Below, one piece after another: positions 511 through 677 of a stretch of DNA of 4,505 nt. Each line of letters opens with the position of its first letter. The stretch's first letter is position 1. Source of the DNA: a virus (Duplodnaviria; Heunggongvirae; Uroviricota; Caudoviricetes); IMG/VR virus record IMGVR_UViG_2778261503_000007; one strand, written 5' to 3'. Made by a program: the position numbers and the translations under genes. The notes under the pieces were generated by a model. The model ran no database searches, was not told the origin of the DNA, and saw only the letters and a list, made by a program, of their open reading frames with translations.

Positions 511-597
511 CTAACAGTCTGGCGTTTTCTTTTTCAGCAACGGAAAAGCAACAACCACCACACCTGCCACCAGCACACCGTCAGCCAGCACTGACAT
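511..597 (-). CDS. possible small hydrophobic peptide (28 aa, MSVLADGVLVAGVVVVAFPLLKKKTPDC; 44 aa if started at GTG 640-642)
   Basis: Minus-strand ORF with ATG at 595-597 and TAG at 511-513, about 80 nt downstream of the 117-codon ORF stop and upstream of the 251-286 terminator. Hydrophobic core followed by a KKK motif resembles small membrane peptides. SD is weak. The Val-richness may simply reflect a CA-rich plus strand. Confidence 0.2.
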   Translation of the reverse strand: MSVLADGVLVAGVVVVAFPLLKKKTPDC

Positions 598-677
598 TAT
601 CCGGCTGCTGCAATGCCATTCACAAAAACAGTAAGCAATCACTTTTTACCGTAACAGGTGATAATCCAGATATGTAT

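Follow-up and report, generated by a model that had tools for sequence, protein, structure and literature searches.

A degraded copy of the cargo gene tciB in the late region of an Escherichia coli lambdoid prophage

TciB and its partner gene in phages

The genes tciA and tciB have been treated as cargo genes beside phage tRNAs, with a function deduced only from TerB similarity, and the tciA, tciB and tciC genes of P1 are non-essential by CRISPRi (PMC10695390; PMC9603915; PMC6799933). A literature search found no functional study of DUF3927/TciB. The small RNA STnc100 has been described as a prophage sRNA that is also present after stx2B (at a distance of 75 nt) and after other cargo (PMC12370729; bioRxiv 10.64898/2026.05.13.724894).

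Homologues of TciB form two groups: full-length proteins of 50–58 aa, such as MTVKMRLAVVALLLFLVVMVVMVDFSSRIMSVLADGVLVAGVVVVAFPLLKKKTPDC, and short forms, 28 or 43 aa in length, with the second half only. The intact proteins share one plan, which consists of a basic N-terminus, a hydrophobic helix 1 (for example, RLAVVALLLFLVVMV), the motif VDF[TS]S[RK], a helix 2 with the motifs SVLADG and [FW]P..K, and a short polar, usually basic tail. The same plan is found in P1, JLK-2012, Evi, PPyecE, Franconibacter, Pantoea and other Enterobacterales. An exhaustive profile search returned only 96 representative clusters, mostly of 49–64 aa, matching both halves. A hairpin topology is presumed for intact TciB; the AlphaFold2 model of the intact protein P0056, a single long, continuous helix (pLDDT 86, pTM 0.43, from an alignment of eight sequences), is uninformative on this point. 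A PDB sequence search found no relative, and PADLOC gave no match for TciB and only a sub-threshold match for TciA.

The tciA gene lies directly upstream in all 79 full-length tciB loci sampled (77 by an automatic criterion and two, both ORF-extension artefacts, on inspection) and upstream of none of the eight short forms. The tciA stop codon and the tciB start codon overlap as GTGA, TGATG or TAATG, an arrangement expected to give translational coupling. TciA of JLK-2012 matches the TerB family PF05099. Because of the gene order, the overlapping codons and the hydrophobicity of TciB, we use a working model where TciA, a soluble TerB-domain protein, would have intact TciB as its partner in the membrane, the two being made by coupled translation.

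The coding sequence of tciB is prone to change in length. Alleles P0005, P0044, P0065, P0094, P0098, P0095 and P0102 vary by in-frame repeat slippage, which has led to expansion of VMV units (VVMVVMVVMV) and to duplication or loss of GVLVA or ADGVL units. The coding sequence, rich in GTGGTG, is an indel hotspot, which fits the deletions described below. A short tciB-like ORF at 3001–3108 of a Pseudescherichia MAG locus (L213), MSINFISKLMSVLADGVLAAGAVILLWPLPQTTR, has no tciA and a substituted DF[TS] motif; this form suggests that tciB may decay repeatedly.

The prophage fragment and its small ORF

The window (the whole stretch of DNA analysed here, 4505 nt) comes from the late region of an E. 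coli lambdoid prophage and has all its genes on the minus strand. It contains the following features.

2740–3789, minus strand: DUF968 gene
2371–2727, minus strand: rusA
1535–2356, minus strand: gene for a Q-type antitermination protein
1435–1454: terminator-like hairpin after the Q gene
1142–1391, minus strand: three tRNA genes (Arg-tct, Arg-tcg and a cat-anticodon Met/Ile) in the same late-region cargo slot
678–1031, minus strand: 117-aa ORF (108 aa from its ATG) with a phrog_2873 match, in the place of tciA
511–642, minus strand: residual ORF tciB′ of 43 codons, GTG start at 642–640 and TAG stop at 513–511
511–597, minus strand: 28-codon core from an internal Met (ATG 597–595), coding for helix 2 and the basic tail (SVLADG...FPLLKKK)
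256–445, minus strand: sRNA STnc100 (RF02076), 132.4 bits against a gathering score of 47, model positions 1–206

The location of the Q gene places everything downstream of it in the late transcription unit. The same order of Q, tRNAs, ORFs and STnc100 is seen in JLK-2012 and in L217, and the small ORF thus holds the cargo position near tRNA genes and the late region that is typical of the family. The tRNA at 1316–1391 (minus strand) is assigned to Met (anticodon CAT) by ARAGORN and to Ile by RefSeq in strain CFT073. Such ambiguity is usual for the lysidine-modified tRNA of ileZ type that accompanies argN/argO-type tRNAs in lambdoid prophages.

Positions 78–4428 are 100% identical to a prophage of CFT073 and related B2 strains. 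The CFT073 locus (L001) has an IS200C transposase at its positions 5298–5756, between Q and the tRNAs, that is absent from the window; for this reason CFT073 matches the window in two pieces. The window ends (1–77 and 4429–4505) are presumably IS1 termini in the same orientation; we take 55–77, the reverse complement of GGTAATGACTCCAACTTATTGAT, and 4429–4451, GGTGATGCTGCCAACTTACTGAT, to be IS1 terminus sequence. An IS1 family transposase is listed in one E. coli record covering the window ends. Since CFT073 has an identical 78–4428 without IS1, the source is likely to have had two IS1 insertions bracketing a 4.35-kb piece of the prophage.

The initial annotation had proposed a small ORF of 28 codons, or 44 from an upstream GTG. 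The ORF exists, with 28 codons from ATG597; from GTG642 it has 43 codons (44 only if the stop is counted), and its translation in the ORF listing of the window is MIAYCFCEWHCSSRIMSVLADGVLVAGVVVVAFPLLKKKTPDC. An in-frame TAA at 648–646, two codons before GTG642, prevents any further extension. With 81 ORFs of at least 20 aa in the 4.5-kb window, the length of this ORF is by itself unremarkable; judged by homology, and not by length, it is non-random.

The 43-aa form matches Pfam family PF13064 (DUF3927) with 95.6 bits (E-value 1.7e-27; the bit-score cut-off was 25), the 28-aa core alone scores 58.3 bits, and PHROG 1470 (‘TciB-like’) is matched with an E-value of 7.8e-13. An identical sequence in E. 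coli CFT073 is annotated by RefSeq/PGAP as ‘DUF3927 family protein’ (WP_000562553.1). The ORF is no orphan: the sequence was already known, annotated and placed in a named family, and what we add is that the allele is a decayed fragment. The intact 57-aa protein P0056 scores 70.8 bits against the same model, below the 95.6 bits of the 43-aa form, so that the Pfam model may have been built partly from window-like sequences and the score of the fragment is probably inflated. To the extent that this is so, the score for residues 2–15 of the 43-aa form is partly circular.

Comparison with the TciB proteins of lambdoid prophages (JLK-2012 and the 57-aa P0014 and P0056) shows what has been kept. Residues 12–43 of the window ORF, SSRIMSVLADGVLVAGVVVVAFPLLKKKTPDC, are the C-terminal 32 residues of P0014. 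Its helix-2 sequence, IMSVLADGVLVAGVVVVAFPLLKKK, is identical to that of intact E. coli alleles, with the motif [ML]SVLADG...[FW]P..K and the short polar, usually basic tail both present. The genomic slot is also the same, after Q and the tRNAs and before STnc100 and the lysis genes. Unlike these proteins of 50–58 aa with two hydrophobic helices, the window peptide has a single hydrophobic segment in a Kyte–Doolittle profile. MIAYCFCEWHC stands in the place of helix 1, and only SSR remains of the central VDF[TSA][SG][RK] motif, with WHC instead of VDF. The basic N-terminus is absent as well, and so is the upstream TerB-like tciA that overlaps all intact copies; the window ORF is not placed directly after a TerB-domain gene with a stop/start overlap.

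A more distant relative, the 54-aa TciB of P1 (from the tciA–tciB–tciC cluster), is homologous to the window ORF over helix 2, where the P1 sequence is TSTILSVLSDGALVAVAVTLVWPILK. Both are cargo beside phage tRNA genes, but P1 TciB has both helices, is preceded by tciA and is followed by tciC.

Loss of the 5′ part, the native start and tciA

Alignment of the window DNA with an intact P0014-type allele divides the minus strand into two segments.

505–610, minus strand: high-identity 3′ segment of tciB
611–670, minus strand: decayed 5′ part of tciB and the last bases of tciA, 44 of 60 positions identical, with deletions of 11, 4 and 5 nt

Within the first segment, 98 of the 100 nucleotides at 511–610 are identical, with no gaps. 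The second has 20–29 gapped bases, although an ungapped block with 24 of 28 positions identical, TCTGGATTATCACCTGTTACGGTAAAAA, reaches from the last part of tciA into the beginning of tciB. Of tciA itself only some 20 nt, from its 3′ end, are left, and identity at 671–700 is at the random level (9/30). The better preservation of the 3′ segment is significant when the JLK-2012 allele is taken for comparison (Fisher p = 0.006).

The changes in the 5′ segment affect the native translation start. The Shine–Dalgarno sequence GGAG has become GGAT (667–664), the native GTG start of the GTGA overlap has become GTT (655–653), and an internal ATG (Met5) has gone with the 11-nt deletion. Read in the native frame, the sequence now gives VTVKSDCLLFL before a TGA (622–620); this forms the tail of an ORF at 620–715. 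GTG642, where the annotated 43-aa ORF starts, is the codon of former Val9. Between the 4- and 5-nt deletions the former helix-1 codons are read in another frame, as residues 4–11 (YCFCEWHC), and from SSR onwards the native frame is regained. Both helix 1 and the VDF turn have been lost through these deletions and the out-of-frame stretch. The initial annotation had named indels in relatives as evidence against a gene; such evidence exists in a specific sense, as the window copy, relative to intact alleles, is the one carrying frame-disrupting indels.

The place of tciA is taken by the ORF at 678–1031, whose 108-aa form matches phrog_2873 with an E-value of 3.8e-69. There are 185 IMG/VR matches to this ORF; the 80 of them that were retrieved are all 98–100% identical and E. 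coli-like. The junction with the tciB remnant follows the 108-aa ORF in 79 of these 80 loci, an indication that the two form one module of single origin. PGAP did not call this ORF in CFT073, and the variants within it are mostly amino-acid changes.

Of 5426 complete E. coli genomes, 1184 (∼22%) carry the truncated allele, which is always annotated there as DUF3927 and is also present in phage mEp460_ev081. With one intact tciA–tciB allele as the query, 789 complete E. coli genomes have a match that is near full length, covering at least 80% of it.

Neither of the two possible start codons is well equipped or constant. Predicted pairing with the anti-Shine–Dalgarno sequence is −3.0 kcal for GTG642 and −3.3 kcal for ATG597, scores that 49% and 39%, respectively, of all window positions equal or exceed. 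The corresponding values are −5.8 to −10.6 kcal for the Q, rusA and DUF968 genes and −6.4 kcal for the GGAG before the GTG of intact JLK-2012 tciB. By this estimate both starts are without a usable Shine–Dalgarno sequence. Among 128 sampled copies, 15 have GTT in place of GTG642; in these the 28-codon core is the sole remaining ORF, so that PGAP calls only 28 aa. At least 1000 contigs carry an annotation of the 28-aa protein P0035, whose 16 copies in our sample all agree with GTT. A single copy has ATA instead of ATG597, and a different one has lost the stop codon. One further element was considered:

596–625, minus strand: promoter-like TTGTGA-18-GATAAT with 9 of 12 matches, in sequence specific to the truncated allele

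It was rejected as evidence, being at chance level and having a −10 hexamer that overlaps ATG597.

We consider that the window at 511–670 (minus strand) contains a degraded tciB copy that is most likely, with a probability of roughly 0.7, a relic making no functional product. The homology, the indels, the loss of the Shine–Dalgarno sequence, start codon and partner gene and the variability of both starts are observed, and from them we infer that the copy is non-functional. One rearrangement may have swapped tciA for the unrelated 108/117-aa ORF. The 5′ third of tciB has undergone three deletions and many substitutions with loss of the Shine–Dalgarno sequence, the start codon and helix 1, and the ORF of 43 (or 28) codons is what stays open by default, namely helix 2 and the tail. 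Such a relic would travel with the neighbouring 108-aa ORF and STnc100, and any peptide made from it would be incidental. The small membrane-peptide gene originally suggested here is right as to descent, since the ORF derives from a gene for a small membrane protein; what is left of that gene is a 5′-degraded derivative without helix 1, native Shine–Dalgarno sequence, native start and tciA.

Residual translation and other readings

The residual ORF could still be translated from GTG642 or ATG597 in the Q-dependent late transcript, yielding a single-pass membrane peptide of 28–43 aa with a retained or new function. Such a peptide may, for example, interfere with intact TciA/TciB of co-resident prophages or perturb the membrane late in induction. 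We regard this as rather unlikely. It is consistent with a 28-codon ORF that stays open in some 200 of the 204 copies sampled (without deduplication), with the 98% identity of the 3′ part to intact alleles despite 5′ decay, and with the wide distribution of the allele in complete E. coli genomes. The 11-nt deletion also puts GTG642 one base from the position of the former ATG (Met5), after the same ACGGTAAAAA. Yet Shine–Dalgarno pairing at the two starts does not rise above background, a substantial minority of copies have GTT instead of GTG642, and one copy has lost ATG597. Residues that are invariant in the family are substituted, including in large lineages: G7 is changed to C or S in 10 of 128 copies, and L4 is changed to P in the Shigella flexneri cluster P0050, which is found on at least 1000 contigs. 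Moreover, all intact members keep two helices and the tciA partner, and the density of polymorphism in the 28-codon ORF (11 sites in 87 nt) is not below that of the flanks.

A marginal excess of synonymous change also favours translation. The 28-codon ORF has eight synonymous and eight non-synonymous polymorphisms, where the neutral expectation is 27% synonymous (binomial p = 0.045). The excess, or the better 3′ preservation, could mean residual selection on the peptide, but both patterns can also arise through gene conversion by the intact alleles that co-resident prophages carry. Intact alleles have a raw pN/pS of about 0.4–0.5, comparable to that of the remnant; with recombination importing already filtered variants, the selection test does not discriminate. 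E. coli genomes carry several prophages with tciB/STnc100 copies able to convert one another.

A more specific form of residual translation, where the single-helix peptide of 28–43 aa is made in late prophage expression and has gained a role of its own, appears to us quite improbable. Such a role might be that of a dominant-negative peptide titrating intact TciB/TciA or of a membrane-active lysis accessory. If true, it would explain the intact helix 2 in about 22% of E. coli genomes. If translated, the peptide would be expected to cross the membrane once, with the KKK tail facing the cytoplasm by the positive-inside rule. A holin or antiholin role, considered for the late-region position, found no family match in its support.

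Another reading is that the 3′ part of tciB has been kept as RNA, serving as promoter or leader sequence for STnc100 expression. This sRNA gene begins 65 nt downstream of the ORF on the same strand and lies directly downstream of diverged tciB alleles in Evi, PPyecE and JLK-2012. The alleles that precede it have different C-termini, and the 3′ segment is unusually well preserved, as an RNA role would predict. Against such a role, STnc100 occurs without tciB, the homology that Stx2 and other phages share with the window breaks off at about position 490, downstream of the ORF stop, and the Rfam model of STnc100 starts at 445. We hold an RNA role to be very unlikely. The late-region cargo slot has STnc100 at its distal edge, and the presence of this sRNA gene without tciB at the shared cargo site makes it a neighbour, not a partner, of the ORF. 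The terminator at 251–286, just before which the ORF had been placed, is that of the sRNA, with its hairpin at 265–286; the placement was imprecise, as 225 nt separate the stop codon from the hairpin and 190 nt of these are STnc100.

Two side observations concern the sRNA gene. By eye, STnc100 may have its own promoter, TTGTCT-17-TTAAAA around 485–450 (TTGATT-17-TTAAAA in Evi), and the Rfam model already includes the TTAAAA of that candidate. The PGAP annotation of CFT073 includes, on the opposite strand and antisense to STnc100, a partial ‘hypothetical protein’ pseudogene at about 301–426 of the window; this is probably a spurious call over the sRNA gene.

The likeness to type I toxins noted in the initial annotation does extend to size (28 or 43 aa, within the <60 aa of such peptides), to the single hydrophobic helix and to the charged, here basic, end, as in Hok, TisB, Ldr, Ibs and ZorO; these features and the abundant STnc100 nearby could suggest a toxin gene repressed by an antisense or adjacent small RNA. 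Unlike such systems, the window ORF matches no toxin family and shows neither antisense RNA signals nor dedicated signals for translation. Pfam identified only DUF3927, and NCBIfam and PADLOC identified nothing, so that no toxin or defence family, including Hok, Ldr, Ibs, TisB, ShoB, Zor and DinQ, was found for it; an Rfam scan of 200–720 returned STnc100 and no Sok or other antitoxin RNA. No promoter-like or terminator-like site was found on the plus strand at 400–760. STnc100 itself is on the same strand as the ORF, and in a crude test that is uninformative at such lengths, 40% of shuffled controls equalled or bettered the duplex predicted between it and the ORF region. STnc100 also follows stx2B and other cargo without tciB (PMC12370729). 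The toxin-like shape of the peptide is explained by its origin as a fragment of a gene from a different family, and a type I toxin gene is, in our judgement, highly improbable.

A chance ORF with Val-rich codons from a CA-rich complementary strand, the alternative offered initially, can be dismissed: the plus strand is indeed G-poor, as had been stated, and A-rich (GC skew −0.47 and AT skew +0.29 at 550–649), and ORFs of similar length abound in the window, but the family profile match, the near-identity of the DNA to intact family genes and the homologues in P1 and several Enterobacterales genera refute it.

Consequences for annotation and for the TciA–TciB family

With the ORF read as a tciB relic, many RefSeq entries of 28 or 43 aa named ‘DUF3927 family protein’, in about 1200 complete E. 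coli genomes and many Shigella, are fragments of a two-helix protein and should not be counted as independent small genes or toxin candidates. The general biological importance of the tciB remnant is small. The intact tciA–tciB pair, widespread in lambdoid and P1-like phages, is a worthier target: it encodes a TerB-domain protein and a small membrane protein and occupies the cargo site where stx is also carried.
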